Virus record (IMG/VR): IMGVR_UViG_3300033463_000007
Location: 159,865-223,864 of that record
Origin: a virus
Taxonomy: Duplodnaviria; Heunggongvirae; Uroviricota; Caudoviricetes
Length of the DNA: 64,000 bases
Strand: one strand, 5' to 3'
Numbering within the stretch: the stretch's first letter is position 1; the number at the start of each line of letters is the position of its first letter. Positions 14,102 through 55,066 of this stretch are shown here, piece by piece. The notes under the pieces are model-generated. The model ran no database searches, was not told the origin of the DNA, and worked only from the letters and a program-made list of their open reading frames with translations. A program made the position numbers and the translations under genes.

Positions 14102-14144
14102 AAAGACCTAATTTTTAGGTCTTTTATTGTATTATATAATATAA
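14102..14144 (+). promoter_or_regulatory. Terminator-promoter cassette
   Basis: AAAGACCTAATTTTTAGGTCTTT hairpin then TTATTGTATTATATAATATA. Confidence 0.5.
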
Positions 14145-14166
14145 ATTTATTTTTAGGAGTTTATCT

Positions 14167-14691: not shown

Positions 14692-14700
14692 TATAAAATT

Positions 14701-14717
14701 TATTGTATAATATATTG
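14701..14717 (+). promoter_or_regulatory. Extended -10 promoter (TTGTATAATATA) driving the intron-containing suppressor tRNA
   Basis: TGnTATAAT extended -10 consensus; same motif recurs upstream of >12 genes. Confidence 0.5.
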
Positions 14718-14811
14718 TCGGATAATTAATCCGACTATTGTCCTCCTTTCTATAGAAGTTCATATCGTCGCAGTTATGATTAAATAGTTTGCGCTAGACT
14801 AGCTTCATTTT

Positions 14812-15175: not shown

Positions 15176-15212
15176 AAAGGAACTTTATTTAATATAAAGT
15201 TCCTTTTTATTT
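15176..15212 (+). terminator. Rho-independent terminator after tRNA
   Basis: AAAGGAACTTTATTTAATATAAAGTTCCTTTTT hairpin plus T-run. Confidence 0.6.
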
Positions 15213-15281
15213 ATCTTATTTTGTTTGCAATATAATTTGCTAAACTAATATGCAAGCAATTATTTAAAGGAGAAATTTATT

Positions 15282-15797: not shown

Positions 15798-15861
15798 AAT
15801 TGTTCTAATATTACAGTAAATATTGTATAATAATATGTATAAAATTATTATGAGGTAAATT

Positions 15862-16443
15862 ATGGCAAAAGATCCATTAAAAACAGTTGGAGCAAGTAAT
15901 CTTTCTGACAAAGAACGAGCTAAAAATGATTATTATGCTACTGATCCTAAAACAACAAAGGCTTTTTTAGCTACATACCCATTAGATAAGACTAAGCTTA
16001 TCTGGGATCCAGGTAGTGGACATAATTTAATTATTAATGTTTTACAGGAGTATGGTTATAAAACATGGTCAACTGATTTATATAATTATGGTTATCAAGA
16101 TAATATTTTTGATTTTTTAACATATTCAAAAAAATTTGAAGGAATAATTTTTGGAAATCCCCCATATAAATTAGCTAATGAATTTGTAAAACACGCATTA
16201 GAAATAGTTACACCTGGAAGCCAAGTTATTTTTTTATTGCGTACGCTTTTTCTTGAGGGCCAGAAAAGATATAATGACATATTTAAACAAAAAAATTTAA
16301 AATTTGTTTTTGTATTTATAAATCGACAAGTATGTAGTACTAAAGATGATTTTACTGAAGGTAGTGCTATTTCATATAGTTTTTTTGTATTTGAAAAAGG
16401 TTTTATAGGAGAACCCACCATAAAATGGTTAGCTACAAATTAA
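15862..16443 (+). CDS. DNA N6-adenine (or N4-cytosine) methyltransferase
   Basis: IWDPGSGHN (motif I) and IIFGNPPY (motif IV NPPY). Confidence 0.6.
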   Translation: MAKDPLKTVGASNLSDKERAKNDYYATDPKTTKAFLATYPLDKTKLIWDPGSGHNLIINVLQEYGYKTWSTDLYNYGYQDNIFDFLTYSKKFEGIIFGNPPYKLANEFVKHALEIVTPGSQVIFLLRTLFLEGQKRYNDIFKQKNLKFVFVFINRQVCSTKDDFTEGSAISYSFFVFEKGFIGEPTIKWLATN

Positions 16444-16640
16444 AATATAGTGGTTATTGTATTATAAACTATACTACACAACAAATATTTTATGGTAAAA
16501 ACTTTGTAGAATTATCACAAACATCTGGTATTGCTGTTGCAGTAATTCAAAGAAATATAAAATTAAATAGAAAAGTAAAAAATATAGGTTATTATAAGTT
16601 GGATATTAATGGTATGCCAATAATAAAGGAGGTGATTTAA
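16425..16640 (+). CDS. Small hypothetical protein, possible HTH
   Basis: 71-aa ORF overlapping MTase 3' end; ELSQTSGIAVAVIQRNIKLNR helix-turn-helix-like. Confidence 0.25.
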   Translation: MVSYKLKYSGYCIINYTTQQIFYGKNFVELSQTSGIAVAVIQRNIKLNRKVKNIGYYKLDINGMPIIKEVI

Positions 16641-16641
16641 T

Positions 16642-17133
16642 ATGAAAGTGTTTATCATTAGTGATACACACTTTGGTTAAGGCCATACTAACATAATTAA
16701 ATATTGTAATAGGCCTTTTCAAACTACTCAAGAAATGGATGAAGTGATGATTAAAAATTGAAATGAAACAGTTTCTAATAAAGATACTATAATTCATCTT
16801 GGAGATGTTGGACTTAGTTCAAAAACATACATTTCTAGTATTGTTAAAAGATTACATGGTAATAAAATTCTTATTATGGGAAATCATGATAATTGGTCAG
16901 AGCAGGCCTATAGAGATATGGGATTTTCTACTGTAAGTAAATTTCCTATTTTATATAATAATTTTTATTTACTAAGTCATGAGCCCCTACAGTTAAGTGA
17001 AACGACTCCTTATTTTAATTGTTATGGACATGTTCATAATGATGAAAAATATCATGATATGGCTACAAGTAAATGTTTTTGTGTTGAAAGAACCGGCTAT
17101 AGGCCCGTACTATTATTTGAAAAAAATTAAGAG
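16642..17133 (+). pseudogene. Metallophosphoesterase (YfcE-like) interrupted by in-frame TAA at codon 13 (16678-16680), plus one TGA=Trp
   Basis: MKVFIISDTHFG-TAA-GHTNIIKYCNRPFQ...IHLGDVG...MGNHD...GHVH: all metal-binding motifs present and in one frame; the stop sits inside the conserved DTHFGH motif. Confidence 0.5.
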
Positions 17134-17141
17134 ATAAAATT

Positions 17142-18131
17142 ATGCAAAGAATGTTATCAGGAATAAAACCTACCGGAACTCCTACTTTAGGAACTTATTT
17201 AGGTGCAATTTTACCCTTTATAAGATACCAAAATGAATATGAGCTATTTATTTTTATTGCAGATTTACATGCCTTAACAACTTGTCAAAATGCTAAAGAA
17301 TTAAGAGATAATATTAATTTATTAGCTAAGATTTATCTAGCTGCTGGATTAGATTGTGGACAAAATAAAACTGTATTATTTAAGCAATCTGATGTATTAC
17401 AACATAGTCAGTTAAATTGGATTTTAAGTAATTATACACTAATGAGTGATCTTGAAATGATGACTCAATATAAACAAAAATGTCAGCAACTTGCAGCTAG
17501 ACAAGGAGTTAATGTATCTTTATTTACTTATCCTGTTTTAATGGCTGCAGATATTTTACTTTATAATACAGATTTAGTGCCTTGTGGTCAAGATCAAAAA
17601 CAACATATAGAATTAACACACGAGCTTGCCCGAAAATTTAACTCTATGTATGGTGAAACTTTTAAACTACCAAAGCCATATATAACCAAAACCGGCGCTA
17701 AAATAATGAGTTTATCTGACCCGACTAAAAAAATGAGTAAATCAGAGTCAGATAAAGGAACAATTTATTTAACTGATACTAAGGAAGTTATTTTTAATAA
17801 ATTTAAAAAAGCTGTCACTGATAGTGAAGGAAAAATTTATTATAATCCAGAAACTAAGCCTGGAATAAGCAATTTACTTACTATTTATGCTGCAATAAAA
17901 GATATTTCTATTCAAGAAGCTGAAAATATATTTAAAGATGAAAAAGATTACGGTAAATTTAAAAATGAAGTAGCTCAGATAGTTTGGCAATATTTAGATA
18001 CATTACAGTATAATATAAAACAAATTTCTGATAAACAAATATTTTTAACATTAGATGATGGTCAAAAACAGGCAGCTAAAATTGCATCAGAAACTCTATC
18101 CAAAGTATACAAAAAGGTGGGATTAAGATAA
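17142..18131 (+). CDS. trpS: Tryptophanyl-tRNA synthetase
   Basis: Class I aaRS: N-terminal MLSGIKPTGTPTLGTYLGAI, KMSKS motif KKMSKSESDKG; 329 aa; no TGA codons. Confidence 0.85.
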   Translation: MQRMLSGIKPTGTPTLGTYLGAILPFIRYQNEYELFIFIADLHALTTCQNAKELRDNINLLAKIYLAAGLDCGQNKTVLFKQSDVLQHSQLNWILSNYTLMSDLEMMTQYKQKCQQLAARQGVNVSLFTYPVLMAADILLYNTDLVPCGQDQKQHIELTHELARKFNSMYGETFKLPKPYITKTGAKIMSLSDPTKKMSKSESDKGTIYLTDTKEVIFNKFKKAVTDSEGKIYYNPETKPGISNLLTIYAAIKDISIQEAENIFKDEKDYGKFKNEVAQIVWQYLDTLQYNIKQISDKQIFLTLDDGQKQAAKIASETLSKVYKKVGLR

Positions 18132-18134
18132 AAT

Positions 18135-19196
18135 ATGTTTGATAGGCTTGAAAGTATATTAAATAAATATGATGAGCTTTCAATGAAATTAAGTTCTTCA
18201 GAAATTATTTCAAGTAATTTATATCAGCAATATAGTAAAGAGTTAGCAGATATTCAAGAAATTGTTGATACTTATTCTGCTTATAAAGACGCACAGGATT
18301 ATTTAGAACTACTTAAAGAAGATGAAGCTAAAAATACTGATTTGGAATTAAAAGTACTATATAATAGTGAAATTAAAGAAACTCAAAGTAAATTATCAGA
18401 GCTAGAAAATAATTTAAAATTATTATTATTGCCAGCTAACAAGGATGATTCCAAAAATATTATTATGGAAATTCGTGCAGGAGTTGGCGGAGATGAAGCA
18501 GCTATTTTTGCAGCAGATCTTTTTAATATGTATTTAAAATATACACAAAAACAAGGTTGGAATGTTTCAGTTAGTAGCTATACTGAAGGTGTTCTAGGTG
18601 GTTTTAAGGAAATTATCTTAAGTATTTCTGGTAAAAACGTTTATCAAAAATTAAAATATGAAGGTGGAGTACATCGGGTACAACGAGTACCAGAAACTGA
18701 GGCTAGAGGCAGAATTCATACATCAACAGCAACAGTTGCAGTACTTCCAGAAAGAACAGAAACAGAAGTTATAATTGATCCAAAAGATATTACTATTGGT
18801 TTATTTCATTCCGGTGGGGCTGGTGGTCAAAATGTAAACAAAGTTGAAACAGGTGTACGTATAACACATATTCCTACCGGAATGGTAGTTGCTTGTCAAG
18901 AAGAGCGGTCACAGCTACAAAACAAAGAACGTGCTTTTGAAATATTGCGCGCAAAGTTATGGGATTATTATAATACTCAAAATATTAATTCTGAAATAAA
19001 CCAACGAAATAGTATGATTGGTACTGGTGATAGATCAGAAAAAATTCGAACTTATAATTTTCCGCAGCATCGTATAACCGACCATAGAATTAATTATACT
19101 ACTTATAATATAGAAGAAGTATTACAAGGTAATTTAGATGATTTAATTGAACATTTACAAATTGCAGAAAATGCAAAATTGTTAATTAATCAATAA
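18135..19196 (+). CDS. prfA: Peptide chain release factor 1
   Basis: GGQ motif (SGGAGGQNVNKVETGVRITHIPTG), PxT-type tripeptide region RVPETEARGRIHTSTATVAVLPE, C-terminal HRINYT; 353 aa; no TGA codons. Confidence 0.85.
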   Translation: MFDRLESILNKYDELSMKLSSSEIISSNLYQQYSKELADIQEIVDTYSAYKDAQDYLELLKEDEAKNTDLELKVLYNSEIKETQSKLSELENNLKLLLLPANKDDSKNIIMEIRAGVGGDEAAIFAADLFNMYLKYTQKQGWNVSVSSYTEGVLGGFKEIILSISGKNVYQKLKYEGGVHRVQRVPETEARGRIHTSTATVAVLPERTETEVIIDPKDITIGLFHSGGAGGQNVNKVETGVRITHIPTGMVVACQEERSQLQNKERAFEILRAKLWDYYNTQNINSEINQRNSMIGTGDRSEKIRTYNFPQHRITDHRINYTTYNIEEVLQGNLDDLIEHLQIAENAKLLINQ

Positions 19197-19232
19197 GATT
19201 AAAAGAGCCTGTTTTAGCCAGGCTCTTTTTTA
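19197..19232 (+). terminator. Rho-independent terminator after prfA
   Basis: AAAAGAGCCTGTTTTAGCCAGGCTCTTTTTTAT hairpin, followed by TTTGCTAAATTATATAG motif. Confidence 0.6.
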
Positions 19233-19269
19233 TTTGCTAAATTATATAGTAAATATGGAGGATTTTATT

Positions 19270-20127
19270 ATGTTAAAATTTAAAGTACCAAAGCAACAAG
19301 ATTTAGATTTAGATCAGTTGATTTTTGATAGAATTACTTTTGGCAATACACAACCATCACCAAAAGATGATCGAGATTATATTGCGCAAGCTAAAGATTG
19401 ATCTAAAATAAAATTTCCAAAAGAATATAGAGCACCAAAAACAGAAGTTTTAAATCAAGAAAATTATGGGTCTTGCGTAGCTCATTCTTGCGCCACCGCT
19501 TTAGCCCAAGGAGAACAACTTATTTCAAATACCCACAATAATTATTCTCGCGGTTATATTTATGGTAATAGAAAATCAACTGACTTGCAAACTGAGGGTA
19601 TGATTGTTAGGCAGGCATTAAAGCAACTACATAATTGTGGAGATGTTCTATATGATGATTTTCCATATAATAAAACTTATCCTATGGTAAAAGCTTTAAT
19701 TGATATTGATAGAGAATATTTAGCAAATAAAGCAAAGCAGTATACTATTTTTGATTTTTATAGGTGTTGTGATGAAAATCAGTTAAAAGATGCTATTATA
19801 TCCTCCGGTGCAGTTATAATTGTAGTTCCTGTTTATAGTGATTTTGCCCGTGATTTACATAAAACTCAATCATGGGAACTCCGAGGCTATCATGCAATGG
19901 CTTTAGTTGGTTGAACTGCTGATAAATGAATTGTACAGAATTCTTGAGGCTTAGAATGGGGTTATGATGGTTGTTTATTAATGGATATGGATTATCCCAT
20001 AATTGAAAGCTGAGGCATAACCGTTAATAAGGAACTTAAAAAGTCACTTTGATATAGAATAAAAACAATTTTTAAACAATTTTGAAATTGAATTAAATAT
20101 ATCTGAAATAAAATATTTAAAAAATAA
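19270..20127 (+). CDS. Papain-like (C1) cysteine peptidase, paralog of 135..1187
   Basis: NYGSCVAHSCATALAQ Cys motif, GYHAMALVG-W-TADK-W-IVQNS-W-GLE-W-GYDG with W=TGA; ORF continuous only under TGA=Trp. Confidence 0.6.
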
Positions 20128-21095: not shown

Positions 21096-21461
21096 GTGTT
21101 TTATATTGCAGATAATGGAATTATTAAGCTGCATGCTGGTGATTCTGGAAATTTTCATTTTCAAATCAATATTGGTTCCACAATAAATCCTCAACCTTAT
21201 GCATTACAAGCAAATGATAAAATTTATTTTTCAGTAATGGAACCAAACCAGCCTTTTGAGCTTGGTGTTTTAAGAAAAATTTTAACAGTTGATGATTTAA
21301 TTGATGAAACAACAATTAATATTCAATTTATAACAGAAGACACTGAAAGGTTAATTCCTGGAATTTATTATTATGAAATGAAATTAGTGCTTATAGATAA
21401 TGAAGAAAATACTCATTATTACACTATTTGCCCAAAAACTAAATTTTATATTCTTGATTAA
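21096..21461 (+). CDS. Hypothetical protein
   Basis: ORF with RBS AGGAGGA. Confidence 0.3.
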   Translation: MFYIADNGIIKLHAGDSGNFHFQINIGSTINPQPYALQANDKIYFSVMEPNQPFELGVLRKILTVDDLIDETTINIQFITEDTERLIPGIYYYEMKLVLIDNEENTHYYTICPKTKFYILD

Positions 21462-21529
21462 AAATAGTTTATTTAAAAATTAATAGCCCTCTCCACTTTA
21501 GGGGGCTTTTTTATTCGGAGAGATACTTT

Positions 21530-23023
21530 ATGAAGAAGACAGATAATTATCAACAAAATATAGATGAAAATAGTGATAAAAATTTTGAATCAATTGGGTA
21601 TGATGAACCAATTGATTTATTATATAGTGAATTAGTTGCCTCTAAGGAAACACCAGAACAAGTAATTATTTATACTGATTTTACACGTAGAACAGAATTA
21701 CCTACTGAAAATGATAAATATGTTAAATCATATATTCGTGAAGCTGATGGCGGATGAAATTTAGCTATTAAAGGTAAGCCTACTCATGAATTATGCACTG
21801 TATTAAGTAATTGTGTAGGCTGAGCCGCTGGTAGATATAATGAAATTTATGATGAAATTAAAAATATCACAGGTCATCATTATCCTTATTTAGTTTGTAA
21901 TGCAGAGGATTTTCCAGTTCGAGCCAAAAAATCATATCCTGATATTATAATGGATCAAACTCCTGAACCTGGCGCAATAATGGTCTGAGAAGGTATTGGT
22001 AGTCTCGCAGGACATGTTGCTATTGTAGAAGAAGTGATAGATAATAATACTGTATATACTTCTGAATCAGGTTATGGTAGTACTATTCCAATGAGATACC
22101 AAAAAAGAGTTAATGATAATGGTTGTTGAGGCATGAACACAACAAATTATAAATTTACTTGCTTTATGCACAATCCAGCAGTTGAAAAAACTATTATTAA
22201 TATAGTGCAACCAGTTGAAAGAGATGTACTAATAGATCAATTATATATTGATACACCTAATTATTCATATATTAGAATGGATCATAGTACAGCTTCTAAA
22301 GCCATAGGGCAGTTTAAACAGGGATATTTTAATTATACCGATAGTTTTATTGGCGATGATTATGTTTGATATAAGCTTGCTGAAAATCAATGAGTTGCTA
22401 AAACAGGCCATATCCAAGTATATCCTAAAGTAAATCCAAGTATAGAAAAAATTGAATTGAATGAAGACTATACTAATACATATTATGCAGGTGATTTTTT
22501 ACAGTTTAAAATGATAGGTTTAAATTGCAAAGAATATTGAAATACCGGGGAAGTAAAAGATGTTGTTTATAATAATTATAAAATAATACCAGCAAATGGC
22601 ACAGCTTTAACTGTTAATGATACAAAAATTATTATTAATTTTGAAAATAATTTAACTCTTGAATTACCTCTTGAGATAAAAGTTAAGGTTGAGCCAAAAG
22701 TTGTAAAAATACAGCTTTCTGGCACGTATAAAACTGAATATTGAGAAGGCGAAAAACTTGATTTAACTGGTCTTATTGTTGAAGCAGTTTATGATAATGG
22801 TGAAATTACTTCATCTATACCTTATATTGCTTCACCACAGGCAAATAGTTTGTTACCATTTATGGGGACTCAAAACGTTGTAATTGCTGCTTATCTTGAC
22901 AACAAAGGATTTTCAACTTCTTTTAAAATAAATGTAAAACATAAACAAACTGCAGCCGAAAAATTCAGTCAAATGATACAAGCACTAGCTAACTTTATTA
23001 GAAGTTTATTTAATAAAAAGTAA
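21530..23023 (+). CDS. CHAP-domain peptidoglycan hydrolase with C-terminal Ig-like repeats (lysin / tail-associated lysin)
   Basis: CTVLSNCVG-W-AAGRY (Cys) and GAIMV-W-EGIGSLAGHVAIVEEV (His) CHAP motifs; many TGA=W; C-terminal KVVKIQLSGTYKTEY-W-EGEKLDLTGLIVEAVYDNG Big-like domain. Confidence 0.6.
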
Positions 23024-28406: not shown

Positions 28407-28430
28407 AATAATTTAGTAAAGGGGATTTTT

Positions 28431-29456
28431 ATGTCAGTAAAAGATGCGTTAATAGCTACTCATTTATTTTTAGAAAACGACTACTTTTTTCGGTATATTG
28501 ATTTAATTGAAAAAAATAAAAATAGAGTAAAACAAAAGTATAAAACTCAAAAACATCATATTATTCCAGCTATTGCTTTTAAATTATATAATTGAGAAGG
28601 TATTGATGCACCAGAAAATTTAGTTAATTTATTATATAAAGATCATATTTTAGCTCATTATTATTTAGCTTTAGCTACTAAAACTTCTGATTTTCAATAT
28701 AAAATGATTGCTGCTATAAATTTTATTTTAGGTAAAGCTAAACAAAGTAAAATAGATATACAAGAACTACAAACTTTTATCTTAAATTTGGAAAATTATC
28801 AAAATTTATATGAAAATTGAATTAAAGAAAGAAGTTTATTACTTCACTCCAAATTATTAGGTCATGAAACTTCTGAAGAAACAAGAAAAAAAATAAGTGA
28901 AGCAAATAAAAATAAAATTTATATTTATAAAGAAAATATAGTACGTGCTGTTCATAAAGAAGACTTACAATTATTTTTAGATAATGGTTGAACTTTAGGA
29001 AATCCTAACTGTCAAAAAAGAAAACAGACCACAGGACAGACTATTATACATAAAGAAGAAATTGAAAAATATATTTTTAAAGAAGACTTATCTTTATATT
29101 TAGCTAATGGTTGAATATTAGGACGAAGTGACCAACATAAAAAAGCAACACAGCAAGGAACACAAGCTTATTATGATAAATTAACAAAAGAAGAAAAAAT
29201 TAATAAATGTGCAACTAGACAAAATCAACACTGAGAAATGTCAGAAGAAACAAAGAAAAAAATAAGTAATGCAAAGTCTGGAAAAAAGCAATCTGAAGAA
29301 CAAAAACTTTTAAATAGTCAAAATAAAAAAGATACAATTTGAATGACTAATGGTCAACAAGATATTATGATTAAAAAAGATTTAGAACTTTATTATTTAG
29401 ACCAAGGTTTTATTCGAGGAAGAACTAATTATAAAAAAAATAAAAAAGGAGAATAA
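28431..29456 (+). CDS. Free-standing HNH homing endonuclease with NUMOD3-like repeats (341 aa, 9 in-frame TGA=Trp)
   Basis: KHHIIPAIAF HNH core; repeated SEETRKKISEANK / SEETKKKISNAKSG (NUMOD3) and LQLFLDNG-W-TLG / LSLYLANG-W-ILGR repeats; preceded by TTTGCTAAATTAATTAG motif; invisible in the standard-code ORF track. Confidence 0.55.
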
Positions 29457-35322: not shown

Positions 35323-37539
35323 ATGCGCACTCTCTTACTTTTAAGAGGTGCTCCTTAGCCAGGAGCAGGTAAGTCAACTTGGATACAGCAACACAATTTA
35401 CATGATTATACTATTTGTCCTGATGAGTTACGAGTTCTTTGTGCCTCAAAAGAGCTTATGGCTAACGGTGAGTATACAATTACTCAAGAAAGAAATAATG
35501 AAAATAAAGTATGGTCTTTATTATTTGATATTCTTGAATATAGAATGTCAAGAGGTGAATTTACTGTTATAGATGCTACTTGTTCTAAAACAAGAGATAT
35601 TCAACAGTATAAGGATCTTGCAGATCATTATAGATATAGAGTATATATTGTAGATTTTACAAAAGTGCCTCTTGAAACTTGTTTAGCACAAAATAAGCAG
35701 CGTCATCCCGATAAGTGGGTTCCGGATGATGCAATTAAAAATATTTATGCTAGATTTGCTACCCAGCCTATTCCTAAAGGTGTGTCTGTAATTCAGCCTG
35801 ATGAATTTGATACAATTTTAGAAACTCCTTTTGATGTATCTAACTATAGAAAATTAGTATTCATTGGAGATATTCATGGTTGTTATGATACTTTAATGCA
35901 GTATCCTGATTTCAAAGATGGATTAAAAGATGATACAGAATATATTTTTATTGGAGACTATATTGATAGGGGCAATCAAAATTATGAAGTCTTAAAGTTT
36001 CTTGGCGAAATAAAAGACCTTCCTAATGTTTGCTTACTTGTAGGAAATCATGAAAATCATATTCAAGATTTTGGAGACGGTATTACTGCAAAATCTAGGG
36101 AGTTTGAAGAAAAAACTAAAGTAGAGCTTCAGACAAAGGGATATACAGAAAAAGAAGCTAGAATGTTTTATAGAAAACTTAGACAGTTTTCTCACATCAC
36201 TTGGAATAGTTTTGAAATTCTAGCTTGTCACGGGGGAATTCCTAATCTTACAAAAAATCTACTCTATGTACCTTCTGAAAAACTTATTAAAGGATCAGGG
36301 TCTTATAGTGATTATTTAACGGTTACTGCTTCTTGGATGGCCCAGACAAATAGTAATCAATATTTAATTCATGGTCATAGAAATACTGAAGGTAGTGAAA
36401 CACAGATTGCTGATCGAGTTTTTAATCTTGAAGGCAAAGTAGAATTTGGTGGGCAGCTAAGAATTGTTGAATTAGATAAAGATGGTTTTCATACTATTGA
36501 GCTTGATGATTGTCAGCCAATTACTGAAGATCTTAATACCGAAACTCGACCGGTAGAGACAGTTGAAGACGCCATTTCTTATCTTAGAAATAATAAGTTT
36601 ATTCAAGAAAAGAAATTAAATGAACAAATATCTTCATTTAATTTTACCCGTGATGCTTTTTATAAAGGAAATTGGAATAGACAAACAATTCTAGCTCGTG
36701 GATTATTTATTGATACTGAAGCTAAAAAGATTATGGCTAGATCATACGAAAAATTCTTTAAAATTGGTGAAGTAAATTCTACTGAATTAGCTGTTTTAAA
36801 AAGTAAATTACAGTTTCCTGTAAGTGCATATGTTAAAGAAAACGGTTTTTTAGCTATTGTATCTTATGATTATAGAAATGATGATTTATTCATTGCATCT
36901 AAATCGACTAATCAAGGAGACTATGTTGAATATATCAAGACTGCTATCGAACCGTATAAAATAAATTTATTTAATTATTTAAAATATGCTAATGAAAATG
37001 GCAATAATATCTCTATGGTATTTGAATGTGAAGATCCTGAGCATGACCCACACATTATTAAATATAATAAGCTTAGAGTAGTTTTATTAGATATAATTTC
37101 TAACCAACTTGATTTTTTTGCTTGGCCTTATGAGCTAACTAAAAAAGTTGCAGAAGAAGTAATTTATTGTCCTGTAAAAGAAAAAGCATATGAATTTAAA
37201 GATTGGGACTCTTTTAGGGAATTTTATTCTGAAATCCAAGAAGATGATTATCAGTATAATGGAAAATATGTAGAAGGATTTGTATTTGTAGATTCTAACG
37301 GATTTCAAACAAAGTGTAAGACTCCTTATTATAATCAATGGAAAAAACTTAGAGGTGTTGCAGACCAGACTCTAAGACAGGGTTATATAGTAAAAACAGG
37401 AATGTTAATTAATTCTTTAGAAAATCTTTTTTATGGTTTTTGTAAAGATTTATATAAAACTTATAGAGATCCTGAAACAAAAACTTATCCATTTAAAACT
37501 GATATTATATCTTTAAGAGAAAGGTTTTTAGTTAATTAA
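35323..37539 (+). CDS. Polynucleotide kinase-phosphatase-ligase (Pnkp-like RNA repair enzyme) with in-frame TAG at codon 12 (35356-35358)
   Basis: P-loop LLRGAP-TAG-PGAGKSTW; metallophosphoesterase GDIHG...GDYIDRG...GNHE; C-terminal nucleotidyltransferase/ligase VKENGFLAIVSY (KxNG motif I); ORF 35458..37539 is the same frame. Confidence 0.5.
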
Positions 37540-45493: not shown

Positions 45494-45791
45494 GTTTTTT
45501 AATTTAATATTTGGTTAATTTTAAAATATTGCAACTAAAATATTTTGATAGGTGATTATAAAAAAATAATTTTAATTAGGCCTAATAATTATCATTTATA
45601 CTCATTGAAGTTTTCTGAAAAGATCAGTGAAGTTGCTACCTCTCGATATATAGGTGAAAGAAATCGGACCGCTATAAGGTGGGGTGCGGTTTAGACCCCT
45701 AAAGACAGCCGTCATTGAATGGTGATCACCCTATTCCATTCATTTTTTTATCTACTGCTGGTGTGGCTCAATGGCAGAGCAGCTGATTTGT

Positions 45792-46369
45792 AAAATAAAT
45801 TGCAACCTTGTAAGGAAACTTATAAGTGAAAATCTCGCTAATTCGGGGAAACCTACAATGAGTAGAATCTATCTTAATTGTGGTAGAAAAATTACCGGAC
45901 GAGGGCTTAAGTATTGTAACAATGTTTGCCAGAAAGAATATGAATATAAATCATATATTGAAAGATGGAAACAAGGTTTAGAAACTGGGCTTCGTGGGGA
46001 GTATCAAATATCTGATTTTATTAAAAGATATTTGTTTGAAACTCGTGGTAAGAAATGTGAACTGTGTGGTTGGGATAAAGTAAATCCTTTAACAAAAAAT
46101 GTTCCTGTAGAAATCCATCATATAGATGGAGATTACAAGAATAATTCAGAAGAAAATTTACAAATTTTATGTCCAAACTGCCATTCACTTACAAATACCT
46201 ACAAAAACTCTAATACTAATAATGGTAGAAAAGAGAGAAATAAATACTCGTCATGACAATCCCGAGCTAGGTTAATACCGAGTGTAGAGACTTTACACGA
46301 GAAACCTAAACCTATATAGGCATGGTTAAGAGAAAGTCCAGACTACAATGTGAAAACGATGTAGCACTG
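45792..46369 (+). ncRNA. Group I intron (td-like, subgroup IA) in tRNA-Thr anticodon loop
   Basis: P element CTAATTCGGGGAAACC (45836-45851), Q element GACAATCCCGAGCTA (46262-46276, near-identical to T4 td intron GACAATCCCGTGCTA), R element GTCCAGACTACAATG (46336-46350). Confidence 0.55.
45858..46256 (+). CDS. Intron-encoded HNH homing endonuclease
   Basis: MSRIYLNCGRK zinc finger; CELCG...VEIHHIDGDYKNNSEENLQILCPNCHSL HNH motif; ORF track extension to 45771 overlaps the tRNA 5' exon and is probably not translated. Confidence 0.6.
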   Translation: MSRIYLNCGRKITGRGLKYCNNVCQKEYEYKSYIERWKQGLETGLRGEYQISDFIKRYLFETRGKKCELCGWDKVNPLTKNVPVEIHHIDGDYKNNSEENLQILCPNCHSLTNTYKNSNTNNGRKERNKYSS

Positions 46370-46422
46370 AATCAGCAGGTTGATGGTTCGACTCCGTTCA
46401 CCAGCTCCAATAAATTATAAGA

Positions 46423-47020: not shown

Positions 47021-47080
47021 GCCCAGGTAACTCAGCTGGTTAGAGGAAATTGTGTCGTGGGTTCAAGTCCCACCCTGGGT
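47021..47080 (+). pseudogene. tRNA remnant lacking the anticodon stem-loop (acceptor + D-arm fused to T-arm + acceptor)
   Basis: GCCCAGG-TA-ACTCAGCTGGTTAGAGG ... GTGGG-TTCAAGT-CCCAC-CCTGGGT: only 10 nt where ~22 nt of anticodon arm plus variable loop should be. Confidence 0.35.
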
Positions 47081-47285
47081 TTTTTATAAAAGTTACAGTA
47101 AAATTATTAGCTAAATTAAAAGAATAAAATAGCTAAGATAGAAAAAATAGCACAACCAAAGAAATTTGGTGTCGCAAAGCTAAAGGGCCCTTTCCGGGCA
47201 GCCAGTTGCTTCTAGGAGACATTACTCATGGAAGCTTTTATTTTATTTATATTTTATTAAAAATTTATATAAAGGGGAAAAATTT

Positions 47286-47927
47286 ATGAAATTAAGAAAC
47301 ACATTAGCACTTATTATGGTAGCAGCTATGCTTTGCTTTGTTGGTGTTGGCTTTGCAGCATGAACATTTATGAATATTGAAGATGCTGAAGTTAGTACAA
47401 TTCAGGATAAAGTTGCTGTCGGTATTGAATTAAATAATGGTTTTAAACTCTATAATGCAGCAGATGATGCTGAAATTACCGCACTTTATCTTATTTGTGA
47501 TGCTCCTGCTGGTGAAACAGATATTCTTAATGGCCAGGGTGTTTATTGGTCAACTTCTGCAACAGGTAAAGATGGTTCTGGTAATAAGTTAGCTGTTACT
47601 AATGTATATATTAAAGGTACATTAGCAAAAGCTGATGAAGACGGTGTCTGGGATAAAGCTACTGTTGATGTTGCATTTACAGCCGACTATACTGATTTAA
47701 GTTCAACTTATATTACTTTTGGTGTAGCTCCAACTATTGCTAATACTACTGGTATTACTGTTGCAAATAATGCAGTAGTTCAAAGTGCATCTTTTGTATT
47801 ACCTTCAGTTGCATATGTTGCAGCAAATCTTCCTCACAGTATTTCAGAGTTAACAGATATGAATACTGCCCTTGGAACAGACTTAAGCGGTACTGCTTTA
47901 AGATTTACAGCTCAAATTGTTGCTTAA
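47286..47927 (+). CDS. Secreted protein with signal peptide
   Basis: MKLRNTLALIMVAAMLCFVGVGFAA-W signal peptide; TGA=W joins to ORF 47370..47927. Confidence 0.4.
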
Positions 47928-49775: not shown

Positions 49776-50181
49776 GGGGGTGTAAAGGTTTCGACAGGGT
49801 TAAGAAAGTGATAGTATACGCAGGAGTTATTCACCTTACGAATCGGTAATTTAAAATAAACGACAATACAATTGTTACTTTTAGTCCTTTCTTAATTAAT
49901 GCACTCTCTTCTATGAGGGCTGCTGCTTAAGATATTATAGGCGCCAAAACAATACGCTGGTGATCAAGCAAGTATTTGAGGTCAAAGAACGGGTCACATA
50001 AAGTTGTCCAACTTTAAAATGGACTGGTGGAGACGGATAAAACCGGCGCAACTCATTTAATATATTGAATTTGCTTATTTTACATTATATTAAATTATTT
50101 TATTAAATAAGCTAGTGCGTAAGTATTATACTATTTTAGTATTAATTTTGGACAGGGGTTCGATTCCCCTCACTTCCACCA
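49776..50181 (+). ncRNA. ssrA: tmRNA (ssrA) with long tag ending -AAA
   Basis: 5' GGGGGTGTAAAGGTTTCGACAGGG (cf. E. coli GGGGCUGAUUCUGGAUUCGACGGG), 3' GGACAGGGGTTCGATTCCCCTCACTTCCACCA; acceptor with G3:U70; tag ORF ...GAC AAT ACA ATT GTT ACT TTT AGT CCT TTC TTA ATT AAT GCA CTC TCT TCT ATG AGG GCT GCT GCT TAA = (N)DNTIVTFSPFLINALSSMRAAA. Confidence 0.75.
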
Positions 50182-50185
50182 ATGT

Positions 50186-50261
50186 CTGGGTGTAATTCAG
50201 TTGGTAGAATGCGTGATTTGGGATCACGATGCCGGATGTTCAAGTCATCTCACTCAGACCA
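50186..50261 (+). tRNA. tRNA-Pro(UGG)
   Basis: CTGGGTG-TA-ATTC-AGTTGGTA-GAAT-G-CGTGA-TTTGGGA-TCACG-ATGCC-GGATG-TTCAAGT-CATCT-CACTCAG-A-CCA. Confidence 0.7.
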
Positions 50262-50271: not shown

Positions 50272-50347
50272 GGAGCTCGTCCTCGACGATATTGAGGGCA
50301 CGCCTTATAAGCGTGTACATAAGGTTTGACTCCTTAGGGCTCTACCA
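50272..50347 (+). tRNA. tRNA-Ile(UAU)-like
   Basis: GGAGCTC-GT-CCTC-GACGATATT-GAGG-G-CACGC-CTTATAA-GCGTG-TACA-TAAGG-TTTGACT-CCTTA-GGGCTCT-A-CCA; D-loop lacks GG and pos 8 is G, so lower confidence. Confidence 0.4.
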
Positions 50348-50403
50348 GGAAAAAGTTAATAGCAATATTAACTTTTATTTTTTATAAAGGAAGGTTTTAT
50401 AGC

Positions 50404-51191
50404 ATGAATTTATTTAAATGCTACCTATCCGACAGTAAGTGATATAAAGAAGCCGTAAGAAATGGTCAACCCATTGGAATTCTTTGACATGACACTGCTG
50501 CTGGAAACCCAAACTTAAAACGTTATGTCCAACCAAATGAATCAGATCCAGATTATGATAAGCTTATGGCAATGCTTGGAAAGAATCAATATAATAATTC
50601 TTGACAGCATTCTACCATGAATAAAGGTGTAAATGCTTTTATTGGTAAACTAGAAGATGGCTCGGTTGCAACAGCTCAATTAGGTGAATGAGATATTCAT
50701 GCTTGAGGTTGTGGGGGCGGAAATAAAGGCTCCTGTAATGGTTATACTATTGTAAATGGTAAAACAACTTGAGTTGAACCTTTTTGGATTCAATTTGAAA
50801 CTTGCGACGACTTTTATACTGATAAAAGCTACTTTGAAGCGGTCTATAAAGAAGCTTGTGAGTTTACAGCTTATATTTGTAAGCAATTTAATATTGATCC
50901 AAATGGTACCGTAGAGTTTAATGGTGTTCAGGTACCTACTATTTTATGTCATGCAGATAGCTATAAGCTTGGACTTGGAAATGATCATGGTGACGTTTTA
51001 GTATGATTTAAAAAGTTTGGTAAAACTATGGATGATGTAAGAAGAGATGTGGCTGCTATCTTACAAGAAGAAAAAGAAAAAGATGATAAAGATAAAGACG
51101 ATGAAGAAATAGATGAAAATACATTTCTCAAATGCTTTAAAATAGTCATCAAATTTATTAAACAGCTCTGGTATAGCACAAATAAAAAGTA
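50404..51191 (+). CDS. N-acetylmuramoyl-L-alanine amidase (Amidase_2/PGRP-like endolysin); 9 in-frame TGA=Trp
   Basis: GIL-W-HDTAAGNP, HA-W-GCGGGNKGSCNGY, PTILCHADS zinc-ligand pattern; completely fragmented in the standard-code ORF track. Confidence 0.65.
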
Positions 51192-51198
51192 AAACTTT

Positions 51199-51240
51199 AA
51201 AAGACCCCAGAATTCTGAGGTCTTTTTATTGTATAATATA
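51199..51240 (+). promoter_or_regulatory. Terminator-promoter cassette upstream of polA
   Basis: AAAGACCCCAGAATTCTGAGGTCTTT hairpin then TTATTGTATAATATA. Confidence 0.5.
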
Positions 51241-51267
51241 AAGAATAAATTTATAGTAGAGGTTGTT

Positions 51268-53037
51268 ATGTCTAGTTTATTTGGTGATGAATTTGAAATT
51301 AAAATTAAAGAACCAGTAGTTAAAGATTTAATTAATAAAACAAAAGCTAAGAAAGAAGCAGAGATTGATCCTGAAAAGCTTTTAAAATCAAAGAAGACCT
51401 CTTTACTCGATAGATTAGCTCTTATTAATGAAAATGTATCTAAAATTTTGGGTAAGCAAAAACATAATGTTTTAGTAATTAAAGATAAACAAACATTTGA
51501 AAATTATATTACTGAAGCCATTAAATCCGGTCGAATCGCAATAGATACAGAAACTAATAATTCAACAGACCCCGTAACTTGTAAATTAATGGGTCCTTGT
51601 TTCTATTATCCTGGTGGTAAACAGGCTTATGTACCTATTAATCATAGAAATCCGGAAACAAAAGAACGGCTTTCATGGCAATTAACAGAACAGGACTGTC
51701 AGGAGCAGTTTAAAAGACTTGTTGATAGCCATAATGAAATTATAATGCATAATGGCAAATTTGACTATGAAGTTATTAAATGTACATGTGGAATCGAAGT
51801 TGTTCCAGATTGGGATACTCTAATTGCTGCAAGATTAATAGATGAAAATACATTTAAAGATGCTGCTATTGGCCTTAAATCACTATATACTAAATATATT
51901 GATCCGGAGCAAGAAAAATACTCAATAGATCATTTATTTGCAAATGTTACATATGCTGATGTAGATCCAGATATTTTTGCTTTATATGCTGCCACAGACT
52001 CAATGATGACTGATAAAGTATATATTTGGGAGCATAAAACTTTTTATGATTTACCAGAAAATCAACCTGTATTAAATTTGCTTAGAACTATTGAAATGCC
52101 GATTATTCAGGTTACAGCTGAAATAGAATTACGCGGTGTTTTTATTGATCAGGAGCTTGGTGAAAGACTTAAGATAAAATATAATAATCAACTTAATGAA
52201 TTAGATAATAAAATTAATCAAATTCTAGTAGATATAAAACCGATTATTTCAACTTGGCGGCTTACAAAAGATGCAGTAGATCAAGCTAAACAATATGTTT
52301 CCGCAAAATCTAAAATGACAGCTGAAAAAATTGAAACAACATATCCTTTTATTGATAAGGATGGCAGACGTTATAAAATTGGTAAATCAAAGTCAGAACA
52401 GCTACCTGAAGATGTAAATCTTGCATCTCCTACACAACTTGCTATTTTATTGTATGATATTTTAGGTTGCCCAGTAATTGATAAAAAGAATCCAAGGGCT
52501 ACAGGTGAAGAAGAAATTGGTAAAATTGTTGAGAAATTAGAGTCAAAGGAGACAAATGATATTAAAGTAGCCGCGGCTAAACAGCTTTGTAGTAGCATTT
52601 TGCAGCGTAGAGGCTTAGCTAAGTTAATTACTACTTATATTGATGTTATTCCTGACTTGGCAAAGCATTGGCCAGACGGTAGAATTAGATATAGATTAAA
52701 TTCAACCGGCACAGACACAGGTCGTTTTGCCTCTGGTGGCAAGTTTAAATTCCTAGATGAAAATGAAAACCCAGTAGAATTAAACTCAATTAATAGCCAA
52801 AATTTACCTTCTCATAATGCAGAAATTAGACTTTTATTTAAAGCCAGTGAAATTTATAATAAATGTTATTGTAATGATGATGTTTATAAGATTCAAGTCG
52901 GTGATGAAGTTGAAACTATTGATGGCTGGAAAAATGTTAAAGAATTAAAAGTTGGTGATGTTATTATTGGTGATGAAAGTCAGGATACTATTATTAATAT
53001 AGTTCAAAAAGAGCAAACTTATTTAATTTATATTTAA
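51268..53037 (+). CDS. polA: DNA polymerase I (family A), 3'-5' exo + N-terminal part of polymerase domain (exon 1 to ~52857; remaining 60 codons are in-frame read-through into the insertion)
   Basis: IAIDTETN (Exo I), HNGKFDYEV (Exo II), RIRYRLNSTGTDTGRFASGG and NLPSHNAEIRLLFKASEIY align to Klenow RIHTSFNQTGTATGRLSS and NLQNIP...IRQAFIAPEDY. Confidence 0.7.
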   Translation: MSSLFGDEFEIKIKEPVVKDLINKTKAKKEAEIDPEKLLKSKKTSLLDRLALINENVSKILGKQKHNVLVIKDKQTFENYITEAIKSGRIAIDTETNNSTDPVTCKLMGPCFYYPGGKQAYVPINHRNPETKERLSWQLTEQDCQEQFKRLVDSHNEIIMHNGKFDYEVIKCTCGIEVVPDWDTLIAARLIDENTFKDAAIGLKSLYTKYIDPEQEKYSIDHLFANVTYADVDPDIFALYAATDSMMTDKVYIWEHKTFYDLPENQPVLNLLRTIEMPIIQVTAEIELRGVFIDQELGERLKIKYNNQLNELDNKINQILVDIKPIISTWRLTKDAVDQAKQYVSAKSKMTAEKIETTYPFIDKDGRRYKIGKSKSEQLPEDVNLASPTQLAILLYDILGCPVIDKKNPRATGEEEIGKIVEKLESKETNDIKVAAAKQLCSSILQRRGLAKLITTYIDVIPDLAKHWPDGRIRYRLNSTGTDTGRFASGGKFKFLDENENPVELNSINSQNLPSHNAEIRLLFKASEIYNKCYCNDDVYKIQVGDEVETIDGWKNVKELKVGDVIIGDESQDTIINIVQKEQTYLIYI

Positions 53038-53101
53038 TTTTTTATCTTGACCGGTAAAATCAGTGCTAAATTAATTAGATTAATATTTTGGAGGTTTAAT
53101 T

Positions 53102-53896
53102 ATGGCATATGGTTTTATTTATAAAATAATAACTACAGCTTCTAATAAAGTTTATATTGGACAAACAACTAGAACTATTGAAGAACGTTACCAAGAGCAT
53201 TTGAAAGCAAGAAATAGTAAAGATAAAAATACTTTACATTTATATCTTGCTATGAATAGGTATGGCGTTGATACTTTTAGTGTTGAAAAAATTGATGAAG
53301 CTAATACACAAGAAGAACTAAATCAAAAAGAAATATATTGAATTAATTTTTATGATTCAATGAATAATGGATATAATATGGCACCTGGTGGTAGCATAAA
53401 TATTTTTGAATCTGAAAAAGTTAGAAAAAAACATGCAGCAAGCATGCGTGATCCAAAAACACGAGAAAAAATTTCTAAAACAATGCATGAGCTTAGAACT
53501 ACTTTTGGCTTTTCTGAGGAACATAAAAAAAAGATACGTGAATCAAGTCGAAAGCGAAAAGAAGAACGGGCAAAGTTAGGTTTAAAATATTATGATGATT
53601 GTTCACATTGTGCAACTAGATCAAAAGCAGTTTATTGTATATTAGATACCGGTGAAAAATTTGAATTTGATTCTATTTTACACGCTGGTAAATGATGATA
53701 TGAAACATACAAACCCTTTGGTGAAACTTATTCTACTGCTACCTATCAAAGAAAAATTGAAGCCTCTATTGCGGGTAAAGAAATTATTTTCCAATCCGGA
53801 CATGACAGTAGAAGTCAAGGTAAAAAAAATATTATTATTAAAATAACTAATATAAAATGATTTTATAAAGATAATTGAAATGGAGGTGATGCCTAA
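53102..53896 (+). CDS. GIY-YIG homing endonuclease inserted within polA (intron-encoded)
   Basis: GFIYKIITTASNKVYIGQTTRTIEERYQEHL GIY-YIG motif; ORFs 53102..53341 and 53360..53695 same frame joined by TGA; preceded by GTGCTAAATTAATTAG motif and RBS GGAGG. Confidence 0.7.
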
Positions 53897-55066
53897 TGAA
53901 AAAGTCTGTCAATATTCGCACAAAATATCGAATTGTTGGTTCAGACTATTCTTAAGTCCGGTCAGGAATTACGACTAGCTGCTTTTATTAGTCAAGATAA
54001 AAAATTACTTGATGCTTATGCAAATAATCAAGATGCTTATGCTATTATTGCAAGCACAATTTTTAATGTACCATATGAAGAATGCCTAGAATTTTATCCA
54101 GCTGGTACTGAGCTAGAAATTGGTGGCCAAAAGGTTATTGCCGGTAATAAAACTCATTTAAATCCAGATGGTAAGGCAAGAAGATCTGTTGGTAAAACAA
54201 TGGTGCTTGCTGGAAACTATGGAATGTCAGGTGCTGGTGCTGGTTCTCTTATGAAGAAAACAGCTAAAGAAGGCAAAGAACTCCTCGAAAAATATTTTCA
54301 GATGTTTACCGGACTTGGTAGTGCTATAGAAAAAGCAAAGGCAGATTTAAAAAAGACTGGTTACGTTGAAGGTCTTTGTGGGCGTAGACGTAGGCTGCCA
54401 GATATTTTTCTTTCTCCCTATGAAGTAAAATATAAAGATCCTGCTAAATTAGAGCAGCAGAATTTTAATCCATTTATAAATTGTCAAAATAGAAATTATA
54501 TTGATCCAACACTTCAGAAATATATTACAAAAACTAATTTTTGTAAAAATAATACTGACTATGAAGCTTTGGTACAGGAAGCTGCTAAAGATGGTGTAAT
54601 TGTACAGGCTAATACAGGTAGAATTGCGCAGGCAGAGAGACAGTGTTTTAATGCTTTAATTCAGGGCGCCGCTGGTACACTTACTAAAAAAGCTATGATT
54701 GATATTTTCAACGATGAACAATTAAGAGCTTGGGATACACATTTAATTGTTACAGTACATGATGAAGTATTAGTTGAATGTAAAGAAGAATATGCAGACT
54801 TGGTTGAGCAAAGATTACCGGAAATTATGATTAATGCAGCTAAAGAACTTGGCATTGAAGCGCCCAGTATGAAATGTGATCCGTATAATGTTACTAGATG
54901 GTATGCAGATAATGCAGCAGCAGCAATTTTAAAAGAATATAATAAAGCTGTTGAAAAAGGAAAGTCAAATGAAGAGGCTCTTGAAAAAGTTATTCAAGAG
55001 CATGAGGAAATTCCAGGAGAAGCCATTATTAAAACAGTTGAAACTGGTTGTGATTTAAATTTTTAA
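53897..55066 (+). CDS. polA: DNA polymerase I C-terminal part (motifs A, B, C); contains a 7-nt frame discontinuity inside motif A at 53947-53953
   Basis: Frame a: MKKSVNIRTKYRIVGSDYS-TAA (motif A Asp); frame b from 53954: GQELRLAAFISQD..., RRSVGKTMVLAGNYG (motif B), VHDEVLVE (motif C). Confidence 0.6.

Follow-up and report, generated by a model that had tools for sequence, protein, structure and literature searches.

A phage tRNA-Thr(UGU) gene interrupted by a group I intron like those of bacterial tRNA genes, with an HNH endonuclease gene in the P5 loop of the intron

In a 64,000-nt stretch of the Caudoviricetes record IMGVR_UViG_3300033463_000007 of IMG/VR (the whole stretch is called here the window), two halves of a tRNA gene stand at 45757-46409, separated by a segment that carries an open reading frame (ORF). 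The locus raises the question of whether both halves form a single gene, what kind of element lies between them, and whether this element has been moving among phages. The preliminary description had read the locus as a tRNA-Thr(UGU) gene split by a td-like group I intron that carries an HNH endonuclease. We found that 45757-46409 is a tRNA-Thr(UGU) gene with a 578-nt group I intron between U36 and A37; it is very probable that this is an intron of the IC3 subgroup inserted in a phage tRNA gene after U36, and that a gene for an HNH homing endonuclease is lodged in its P5 loop.

The interrupted tRNA gene and the family of its intron

The gene at 45757-46409 is missed by ARAGORN in its default mode and by the Rfam tRNA model. 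When introns were allowed, ARAGORN called a tRNA-Thr(tgt) with these same limits and a 578-nt intron at position 36. The 5' exon (45757-45791, 35 nt, + strand, as are all the features of the element; GCTGGTG...GCTGATTTGT) includes the 5' strand of the acceptor stem, the D arm, the 5' strand of the anticodon stem and the loop nucleotides U32 to U36; its last base, U45791 (U36), is the U of the 5' splice site. The 3' exon (46370-46409, 40 nt; AATCAGC...CACCAGCTCCA) starts with A37 and A38, which are followed by the 3' strand of the anticodon stem and the variable loop, and up to 46409 by the T arm, the 3' strand of the acceptor stem, the discriminator U and CCA. According to ARAGORN the joined exons form a cloverleaf of 75 nt with acceptor, D, anticodon and T stems of 7, 4, 5 and 5 bp; the anticodon loop is UUUGUAA, CCA is encoded, the acceptor, D and anticodon stems are perfect, and the T stem includes two G.U pairs. 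The spliced sequence is 76-84% identical over 75/75 nt to the uninterrupted, annotated tRNA-Thr of many phages, and thus the halves are not unrelated degenerate tRNA fragments, the outcome that the preliminary description had named as fatal to its proposal. Its statement that the D and T arms match the tRNA-Thr of E. coli was not reproduced, given that blastn of the spliced tRNA across 5,426 E. coli genomes gave zero matches. In E. coli, the threonine identity elements are G1-C72, C2-G71, G35 and U36; all of them are found in the spliced sequence.

The intron occupies 45792-46369, starts with AAAATAAATTGCAACC and ends with GCACTG, the last base being the terminal G46369 (omegaG); across the 5' boundary the sequence reads GATTTGT/AAAATAAA. 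Helices P1 to P9 were read from the sequence, and a part of them was recovered by minimum-free-energy folding. P1 is a hairpin at 45788-45805, present in the minimum-free-energy fold, in which the exon bases UUGU (45788-45791) plus AA of the intron pair with UUGCAA (45800-45805); U45791 forms a wobble pair with G45802 that marks the splice site, so that the last base of the exon is a U paired with a guide G and the last base of the intron is a G, as is characteristic of group I introns. P10 would form between AAU of the 3' exon (46370-46372) and AUU (45799-45801). P2 (45807-45826, also in the fold) consists of CUUGUAAG and CUUAUAAG closed by a GAAA tetraloop (45815-45818). The 5' strand of P3, UCUCG (45833-45837), pairs with CGAGA (46298-46302), and the 5' strand of P4, UUCGGG (45842-45847), which lies inside the conserved P element AAUUCGGGGAA, pairs with CCCGAG (46261-46266) in the Q element AAUCCCGAGC. 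Between the two strands of P4, the P5 stem AUGAGUA/UACUCGU (45858-45864 and 46245-46251, present in the folds) closes the ORF and contains its start codon. P6, a hairpin CUAGGU-UAAU-ACCGAG whose inner pairs align poorly across the family, follows directly after the 3' strand of P4 and extends to 46282.

The 3' half of the core starts with the R element GUGUAGAGACU (46283-46302), which was recognized by the motif search, by covariation and by covariance-model alignment; it includes the 5' strand of P7 (G46287 and G46289-U46292), the spacer UUACA and the 3' strand of P3. P8 (ACC...GGU, 46304-46326) has an inner stem CCU/AGG and a CCUAAA/CAUGG internal loop that resembles a tetraloop receptor. 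The S element AAGAGAAAGUCC (46328-46339), placed by the alignments to Rfam RF00028 and to the model R1 described below, ends with the 3' strand of P7 (46335-46339), P7 being G-GACU/AGUCC. The P9 hairpin CUACAAUGU-GAAA-ACGAUGUAG (46343-46364) is present in the fold and is followed by CACUG with the terminal G46369; its inner part is shorter than in the relatives, and its GAAA loop is at 46352-46355. The motif of P8 and a similar one in P5 (CCUACA/CAUGA), which resemble the 11-nt tetraloop receptor, are degenerate, with A.C replacing G.U. As a separate observation, the region of P8 and P9 (46303-46376) gives a sub-threshold match to the Rfam LOOT RNA (25.6 bits; gathering score, 46.4), both having a GAAA hairpin and a receptor-like loop CCUAAAC/GCAUGG, and the likeness probably does not go beyond these motifs. 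An intron of the archaeal type, with a bulge-helix-bulge, was also considered, and it was ruled out by the complete group I core.

To place the intron in a family, relatives were gathered with a motif over R, P3', P8 and S (GTGTAGAGANNNNANNNNNNNNACCTAN{10,40}AAGNNANNKTCC, with 22 bases specified), which occurs twice in the window, in this intron and in a second one described in the last section, against 0.00 occurrences expected. Alignment A1 includes 56 non-redundant ORF-less tRNA introns from viral contigs, the window intron without its ORF and the other intron of the window. The window intron has every invariant core base of A1, those of the P and Q elements outside the search motif included (A84 A85 T87 C88 G89 A94, A130 A131, and, in Q, C135 G136 A137 G138 C139). 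With the P1-P9 and cloverleaf structure imposed, standard pairs amount to 84.3% vs 63.5% in shuffles, none of which (0/500) reaches the observed value; when the 3' partners were slid by 1-3 columns, 33-45% were paired. All the cells of P3 are paired, with compensatory changes in 5/5 pairs; P7 is also 100% paired, GACU/AGUC being replaced in relatives by GAAC/GUUC or GACC/GGUC; P4 is paired in 97% of the cells and the outer three pairs of P9 in 98%. Covariation was also observed in P2, where 8/8 pairs change on both sides, and in inner P8, the acceptor stem, the T stem and the anticodon stem that spans the intron (92.7%). A covariance model (R1) was made for the P3-P8 core with 37 tRNA introns of viral contigs and no sequence from the window; it matches exactly two places of the window, 46242-46343 (58.4 bits, E 1.9e-11) and 15010-15118 (34 bits, E 6e-6). 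With Rfam at gathering thresholds, zero group I matches were obtained in the whole window; five of the relatives in A1 pass the RF00028 threshold, with 52.7-64.3 bits.

Judged from these alignments, the intron is a member of the IC3 family, the Azoarcus/Anabaena type of bacterial tRNA introns, and the td-like assignment of the preliminary description has to be abandoned. The location in the anticodon loop and the homology to tRNA introns, seen in the R1 match and in the relatives found with the motif, are those of IC3; a compact layout like that of IC3 is also suggested by the GAAA loops on P2 and P9 and by the putative, degenerate receptor motifs in P5 and P8. IA2 introns such as td are typified by helices P7.1 and P7.2. 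In the window intron only the 5 nt UUACA (46293-46297) separate the 5' strand of P7 from P3', which leaves no room for these helices, and the ORF is in P5, not in P6. That a td-like (IA2) phage intron of the T4 type simply happens to sit in a tRNA gene would agree with the phage setting and the homing endonuclease, both as in the T4 introns, and some local resemblance to td is to be expected given that every group I intron has P/Q/R/S-like elements; nonetheless, the intron aligns end to end with IC3 tRNA introns, it is matched by R1, and when the region was compared with 50,697 phage records by blastn in a sensitive mode, only three weak matches were obtained, all in the HNH ORF and none to a T4 record, so that we assign scarcely any probability to this idea. 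Megablast of 40000-64000 against the same records gave zero matches, and an exact 29-mer of the R/P3' region had zero matches in IMG/VR. The T4 introns td, nrdB and sunY (I-TevI/II/III) are mobile, endonuclease-bearing phage group I introns in which translation of the ORF competes with folding, and the IC3 intron of the window would resemble them in this. In contrast, the T4 introns are of IA2 type and interrupt genes for proteins, the endonucleases that they encode are either GIY-YIG enzymes or HNH enzymes of other architecture, and the window region has no similarity to any T4 record detectable by blastn.

The closest described counterparts are found in bacterial chromosomes. In the tRNA-Ile intron of Azoarcus, P2 and P9 end in GAAA loops, P8 and P5 contain the receptor motifs, and the insertion site follows the third anticodon base. 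Group I introns of the IC3 type in the tRNA-Ile(CAU) of Azoarcus sp. BH72 and in the tRNA-Arg(CCU) of Agrobacterium are said to have been described by Reinhold-Hurek and Shub in 1992. The window intron resembles them in being inserted directly after the third anticodon base, a U, and in the compact P2-P9 core with GAAA loops, receptor-like motifs in P5 and P8, the same R element (GUGUAGAGACU) and an S element of the form AAG..A.AGUCC; moreover, relatives in tRNA(CAU) and tRNA-Arg(CCU) were found by the same motif, and several of the CAU group pass RF00028. The Azoarcus and Agrobacterium introns are ORF-less, of about 200-250 nt, and chromosomal in Proteobacteria, whereas that of the window is in a phage, interrupts a tRNA-Thr(UGU), carries a 132-aa HNH ORF in P5, and has degenerate receptor-like motifs and a short P9. 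The tRNA-Leu(UAA) intron of cyanobacteria and plastids (IC3) belongs to the same family, and its host gene is the commonest among the matches listed; it differs in being inserted between positions 34 and 35 instead of 36 and 37, and its classical examples are ORF-less. By its presumed mechanism, the element of the window would be an ordinary representative of the mobile group I introns, of the type found in bacterial tRNAs; what is new with regard to the searchable literature is the tRNA-Thr(UGU) as host gene, the phage setting and the HNH gene in the P5 loop.

The HNH endonuclease gene and its relatives

The ORF at 45858-46256 (132 aa) fills the P5 loop and ends with a TGA stop codon 2 nt after the P5 stem. 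It matches the Pfam HNH domain PF01844 with 24.4 bits (cut-off, 21.4) and the HNH families of PHROG (phrog_10822 at 5.8e-17); hence the HNH ORF proposed for a peripheral loop is there, and the loop is that of P5. The motif CxxC...HH.DG..NN...N...CPNCH is intact and invariant across the relatives (C67, C70, H88, D90, G91, N95, N96, N100 and C105-P-N-C-H109). The ribosome-binding site is likely GGGG (45845-45848), which overlaps P4 and is located 9 nt before the AUG; given that this site lies in P4 and the AUG in P5, folding of the intron and translation of the HNH protein should compete. Gene callers propose instead a 161-aa ORF from the ATG at 45771, which we consider spurious, its start being inside the D loop of the tRNA. 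The 132-aa protein was not on record by exact-protein look-up.

Related ORFs occupy diverse positions. Long introns (650-880 nt) with an ORF are present in 27 of the 107 viral split tRNAs listed, and the ORFs of such introns that were scanned against Pfam (147-200 aa) are HNH proteins with 39-50% identity to the window protein over the nuclease domain; they are placed before P4 or in the P6 loop, some of them antisense, and a P5 insert is present in one other of the viral long introns listed (L132). In viral contigs, the relatives that match best over the full length (43-50% identity) are encoded by free-standing genes flanked by tRNA genes, at the loci L014, L016 and L017. They have no ribozyme around them, with gaps of 7-55 nt to the neighbouring tRNAs, and two of the free-standing relatives are directly downstream of a tRNA-Thr gene. 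Free-standing homing endonucleases have been reported in phage tRNA clusters, e.g. SegB of T4 (PMC13096335); SegB differs from the present proteins in being a GIY-YIG enzyme. A free-standing endonuclease that targets a gene may be able to move into an intron of that gene, and these relatives would fit such a course; those beside tRNA-Thr offer a plausible example of how an intron that consists of the ribozyme alone comes to gain an endonuclease.

Ribozyme-only introns of this kind are indeed found in bacterial tRNA-Thr genes. Eight of the bacterial matches listed lie in tRNA-Thr(UGU) genes in which the intron is placed at 36/37, as in the window: five in metagenome-assembled genomes (MAGs) of Clostridia, two in Gammaproteobacteria and one in a Bacilli MAG (L254). 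The junctions inspected (...TTGT/.../AATCAG...) follow the pattern of the window, the UUGU/GCA pairing of P1 is retained, and the elements are 67-72% identical to that of the window without its ORF. In the two Gammaproteobacteria the anticodon arm (GCAGCTGATTTGT) is identical to that of the window, and the tRNAs downstream resemble, by length, the E. coli thrU-tyrU-glyT-thrT operon. Seven of the eight introns are ORF-less.

The remaining one, in the MAG 'Bacilli bacterium LOHA26_bin.017' (JBJEEA010000052.1, 6126-6860), has the same tRNA, the same insertion site and an ORF in the P5 loop. This ORF, located between P4 and Q, encodes a 140-aa HNH protein with 58% identity to that of the window (72/124, E 4e-51), and without the ORFs the tRNA and ribozyme are 72% identical. 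In contrast with the window, L254 belongs to a small cluster of tRNA genes, its contig (87.6 kb) was binned as bacterial, and its intron has a canonical CCUAAG/UAUGG receptor in P5, a longer P1 extension and a full P9. No description of this intron was found in the searchable literature. That an architecture is shared at 58% protein identity implies selection, and this bears on a different interpretation of the window locus, namely that it is a dead tRNA, a defective intron remnant plus an HNH gene of the free-standing type, from which no functional tRNA-Thr is made. In its favour, the window intron is below the Rfam gathering score, and the closest full-length viral relatives of the HNH protein are the free-standing genes of L014, L016 and L017, which means that this lineage moves around tRNA clusters without an intron. 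We consider the dead tRNA very improbable, given that all the cloverleaf stems are perfect or wobble-paired, that the catalytic core has all its helices and the invariant bases of the family, that neither the U.G pair of the splice site nor the terminal G is missing, and that L254 repeats the same tRNA, site, loop and endonuclease.

A tRNA intron with its own endonuclease has a precedent outside phages. Bonocora and Shub, in 2001, reportedly described in Synechocystis PCC 6803 a tRNA-fMet intron that encodes I-Ssp6803I. As in the window, a tRNA group I intron bears its own endonuclease gene, and I-Ssp6803I targets the anticodon region of the intron-less tRNA gene; the Synechocystis intron differs in its location in a cyanobacterial chromosome, in the tRNA and the insertion site, and in that the endonuclease is not of the HNH type. 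I-Ssp6803I belongs to a PD-(D/E)XK family.

Alleles with and without the intron

Contigs that carry either allele of the locus were found by exact-protein look-ups of the neighbouring genes. The intron is present in contigs 100% identical to the window from ENA (ERZ27256849, L138) and JGI (3300028832, L139 and L143). In two Logan contigs (L140 and L141, from runs SRR10393136 and SRR8543131) the intron is absent and the exons are joined as GATTTGT/AATCAGC (45791/46370), the intron-less site being GGCAGAGCAGCTGATTTGTAATCAGCAGGTTGATGG. The first bases of these contigs are AGAGCAGCTGATTTGT/AATCAGCAGG... and TGATTTGT/AATCAG..., so that no more than 8-16 nt precede the junction, and they continue with 1.4-1.6 kb of perfect identity; the upstream contigs of the same two runs (L142 and L144), with 4.1 kb and 1.2 kb of perfect identity, end at 45785, inside the 5' exon. 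Whether these contigs represent a DNA allele or spliced RNA, the splice junction is confirmed to the base. Thus the insertion point expected from the U and G splice rules, after position 36, was the correct one, and the intron-free junction, which would also mark the homing site, exists in two independent public assemblies. The libraries are probably DNA, and the junction a DNA allele, because in the sibling run SRR10393135 a 33.5-kb contig, identical to the window over 12782-18297, retains the other tRNA intron. Were the intron-less contigs derived from RNA, their junction would show splicing directly. No intron-less orthologue was obtained from the relatives of the upstream single-stranded DNA-binding protein (SSB) gene (48-55% identity, on IMG/VR contigs of 220-233 kb), given that none of them has a tRNA within 6 kb.

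Since copies with and without the intron occur in flanks that are 100% identical, the intron looks recently mobile. A less dynamic picture, that the intron splices but no longer moves, with an HNH gene that is decaying or has become a domesticated passenger, and with spliced RNA as the source of the intron-less reads, is compatible with several of these data: the library type of SRR10393136 and SRR8543131 is deduced, both intron-less contigs start just before the junction, and the ORF-less state of seven of the eight Thr introns indicates that such introns have often lost an endonuclease gene or never acquired one. Nonetheless, the ORF is intact with all the invariant HNH and zinc residues, the SRR10393135 contig keeps the other tRNA intron unspliced, as fits DNA, and in both runs the contigs break in the 5' exon, as assembly graphs do when two DNA alleles are present. 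In addition, the identity of the flanks over 4.1 kb and 1.6 kb indicates a recent gain or loss of the intron. We therefore regard an immobile intron as rather unlikely and retain the reading of a mobile IC3 intron. Its two alleles in identical backgrounds would constitute a natural homing system.

For this mobile intron, we infer the following sequence of events from the features described. The gene would be transcribed as a 653-nt precursor, in which UUGU of the anticodon loop would pair with the internal guide GCAA to form P1, the wobble pair of U36 with G45802 marking the splice site. The core would fold as P3-P8, with P3 and P7 forming a pseudoknot, and the GAAA loops of P2 and P9 would presumably dock into the receptor-like motifs of P8 and P5, bracing the core. 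Free guanosine would then attack after U36, the terminal G46369 would enter the G site, and the 5' exon would attack the 3' splice site to yield a 75-nt tRNA with the loop UUUGUAA. The HNH protein, translated either from the precursor or from the excised intron, would cut or nick the intron-less tRNA-Thr alleles of co-infecting relatives, and repair from the intron-bearing copy would spread the intron by homing.

Several points weigh against the proposal as a whole. Self-splicing, the activity and target of the endonuclease, homing itself and the origin of the intron-less contigs in DNA and not in spliced RNA are deductions from sequence. The gathering motif was derived partly from the window, so the R, P8 and S columns of A1 are invariant by design and their invariance carries no information. 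Pairing in A1 is weak in P5 (68% of the cells), inner P6 (52%) and inner P9 (38%). The Infernal search with RF00028, which had been proposed as a check, gives for the window intron a partial match, to the 3' core, of 14 bits (E 0.89) that fails the gathering score of 50; this low value is largely explained by the 390-nt ORF in P5, which splits the model match, and by the shortened P9. Finally, model R1 paired CUCG of the P5 3' strand with CGAG of P3', as a substitute for the 5' strand of P3, and such a P5-P3' pairing could compete with P3 during folding. The P5 3' strand, UACUCGU (46245-46251), contains the bases CUCG, identical to those of the P3 5' strand at 45833-45837.

Split tRNAs in other phages and TGA recoding in the window

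The core motif is present in at least 118 IMG/VR viral contigs, and among the matches listed 107 lie inside tRNAs that ARAGORN calls as split by an intron, many of them within tRNA arrays; introns of the tRNA type (IC3) are thus common in phage tRNA genes. The hosts listed are mostly tRNA-Leu(UAA), and also Phe, Arg, Met/Ile(CAU), Pro, Ser and one Thr. Several are called by ARAGORN with stop-codon anticodons, a few of these calls having been checked by hand; these are the loci L025, L054 and L098 (tta), L053, L076, L128 and L146-L148 (cta), and L036 and L055 (tca). The IMG/VR intron cores most similar to that of the Thr intron of the window are all in tRNAs of the CUA type. A cultured example is the 490-kb jumbo phage of Agrobacterium Atu_ph07 (MF403008.1, around position 113,000; L269, 1494-1855), in which a tRNA-Leu(UAA) with a 278-nt intron of the same family remains unannotated in a feature-free stretch. 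In bacterial contigs sampled at one genome per species, the motif occurs at no fewer than 120 places; among the matches listed, 109 are in split tRNAs, of which tRNA-Leu(UAA) is the commonest (48/109), and they include tRNA-Arg(CCU) of Rhizobiales (Bradyrhizobium, Bartonella, Neorhizobium), tRNA-Leu(UAA) and tRNA-Met/Ile(CAU). These three tRNAs are the classical hosts of IC3 introns.

The review of Hausner, Hafez and Edgell (2014) places every phage intron known at that time in a protein-coding gene, although phages have many tRNA genes (PMC3984707). A later report of phage tRNA introns was not found in the searchable literature on phage introns, jumbo phages and recoded phages. The opinion that two such introns in one phage region are unusual is correct against that review, but not against the IMG/VR contigs counted above, one of which (L112) has two introns that pass the Rfam threshold in a single tRNA array. 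Because standard finders miss split genes, the tRNA inventories of phages, including the suppressors of recoded phages, are probably undercounted. The interest of the locus is higher for phage tRNA genes in general than for the element itself, and the TGA recoding and split UCA suppressor described next are possibly more interesting.

The other intron-split tRNA of the window, already suspected in the preliminary description, is at 14812-15175; default ARAGORN and the Rfam tRNA model miss it, and ARAGORN with introns allowed detects it. When the rules of group I introns are applied (splicing after U14844, terminal G15134), a perfect 74-nt cloverleaf with the loop CUUCAAA is obtained, whose anticodon, UCA, would suppress the opal codon UGA; the discriminator is G, CCA is encoded, and the intron is matched by R1. 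The label that ARAGORN gives to this tRNA, Ala(tgc), was rejected in favour of UCA, since it needs a mismatched anticodon stem and an intron that does not end in G. Two kb downstream, 17142-18131 encodes a class I aminoacyl-tRNA synthetase of the Trp/Tyr type (PF00579, 242 bits).

Five frames of the window (19186-20127, 21443-23023, 50338-51192, 28407-29456 and 5689-7116) are open only if TGA is read as sense; each contains 6-9 in-frame TGAs and no TAA or TAG. When TGA is translated as Trp, the first four match Peptidase_C1, CHAP, Amidase_2 and a NUMOD3 endonuclease-like protein, respectively, and in the Peptidase_C1 frame the TGAs fall on tryptophans of the conserved stretch NSWG..WG; the frame 5689-7116 has no Pfam match. 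The window is a replication region of a large phage, with genes for gyrase A/B, a Pnkp-RNA ligase fusion, DnaB, a Toprim primase, SSB, a split family A DNA polymerase (PolA), RecA, a clamp loader and an exonuclease, and the same genes are present on a 231.8-kb JGI contig. As judged by the reading frames, TGA is recoded in lysis-type and endonuclease genes, and the replication genes are in the standard code. This recoding of a subset of the genes resembles that of the TGA-recoded phages of Borges et al., who found suppressor tRNAs in only 35-40% of recoded phage genomes.

It is tempting, although we judge it improbable, to consider group I introns as a general and overlooked feature of phage tRNAs, stop-codon suppressors included, and not as purely selfish passengers. 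If so, the need for splicing in the tRNA(UCA) could delay or gate the mature tRNA and thereby time the read-through of TGA in the lysis genes, an unspliced intron could shield the anticodon loop from host anticodon nucleases until the tRNA is needed, and introns would explain part of the shortfall of suppressors among recoded phages noted above. As regards anticodon nucleases, 35458-37539 encodes a fusion of a kinase (AAA_33), a phosphoesterase and a T4-type RNA ligase 1, a tRNA-repair enzyme of the Pnkp/Rnl-like type, and its presence suggests that the tRNAs of this phage are under pressure from such nucleases of the host.

Other features of the window deserve mention. The two parts of PolA are encoded by the ORFs 51229-53037 and 53933-55066, and between them lies a GIY-YIG endonuclease ORF (53084-53896) with five in-frame TGAs; an intron is suspected in this gap, in which (52850-54050) no Rfam family is detected at E<=1. 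Directly after the stop codon of the NT5C gene, 47021-47079 forms a tRNA-like element that has no anticodon arm and is called neither by ARAGORN nor by Rfam; it consists of an acceptor stem GCCCAGG/CCTGGG(T), a D arm and a T arm GTGGG-TTCAAGT-CCCAC, followed by a T-run. A c-di-GMP-I riboswitch (49.5 bits) is located at 47139-47213, upstream of a gene that starts at ATG 47286, encodes a hydrophobic N-terminus, has an in-frame TGA at 47361 and continues into the ORF 47370-47927; thus, a second-messenger riboswitch precedes a recoded phage gene. Control of the tRNA-Thr intron by this riboswitch, as in Clostridioides difficile, was considered and rejected, given that a complete NT5C gene and about 770 nt lie between them. 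Lastly, the stretch 49776-50261 has a phage tmRNA (85.5 bits, tag ...SSMRAAA), followed 4 nt later by a tRNA-Pro(UGG), and tmRNAs are also present at the related loci L014 and L026.

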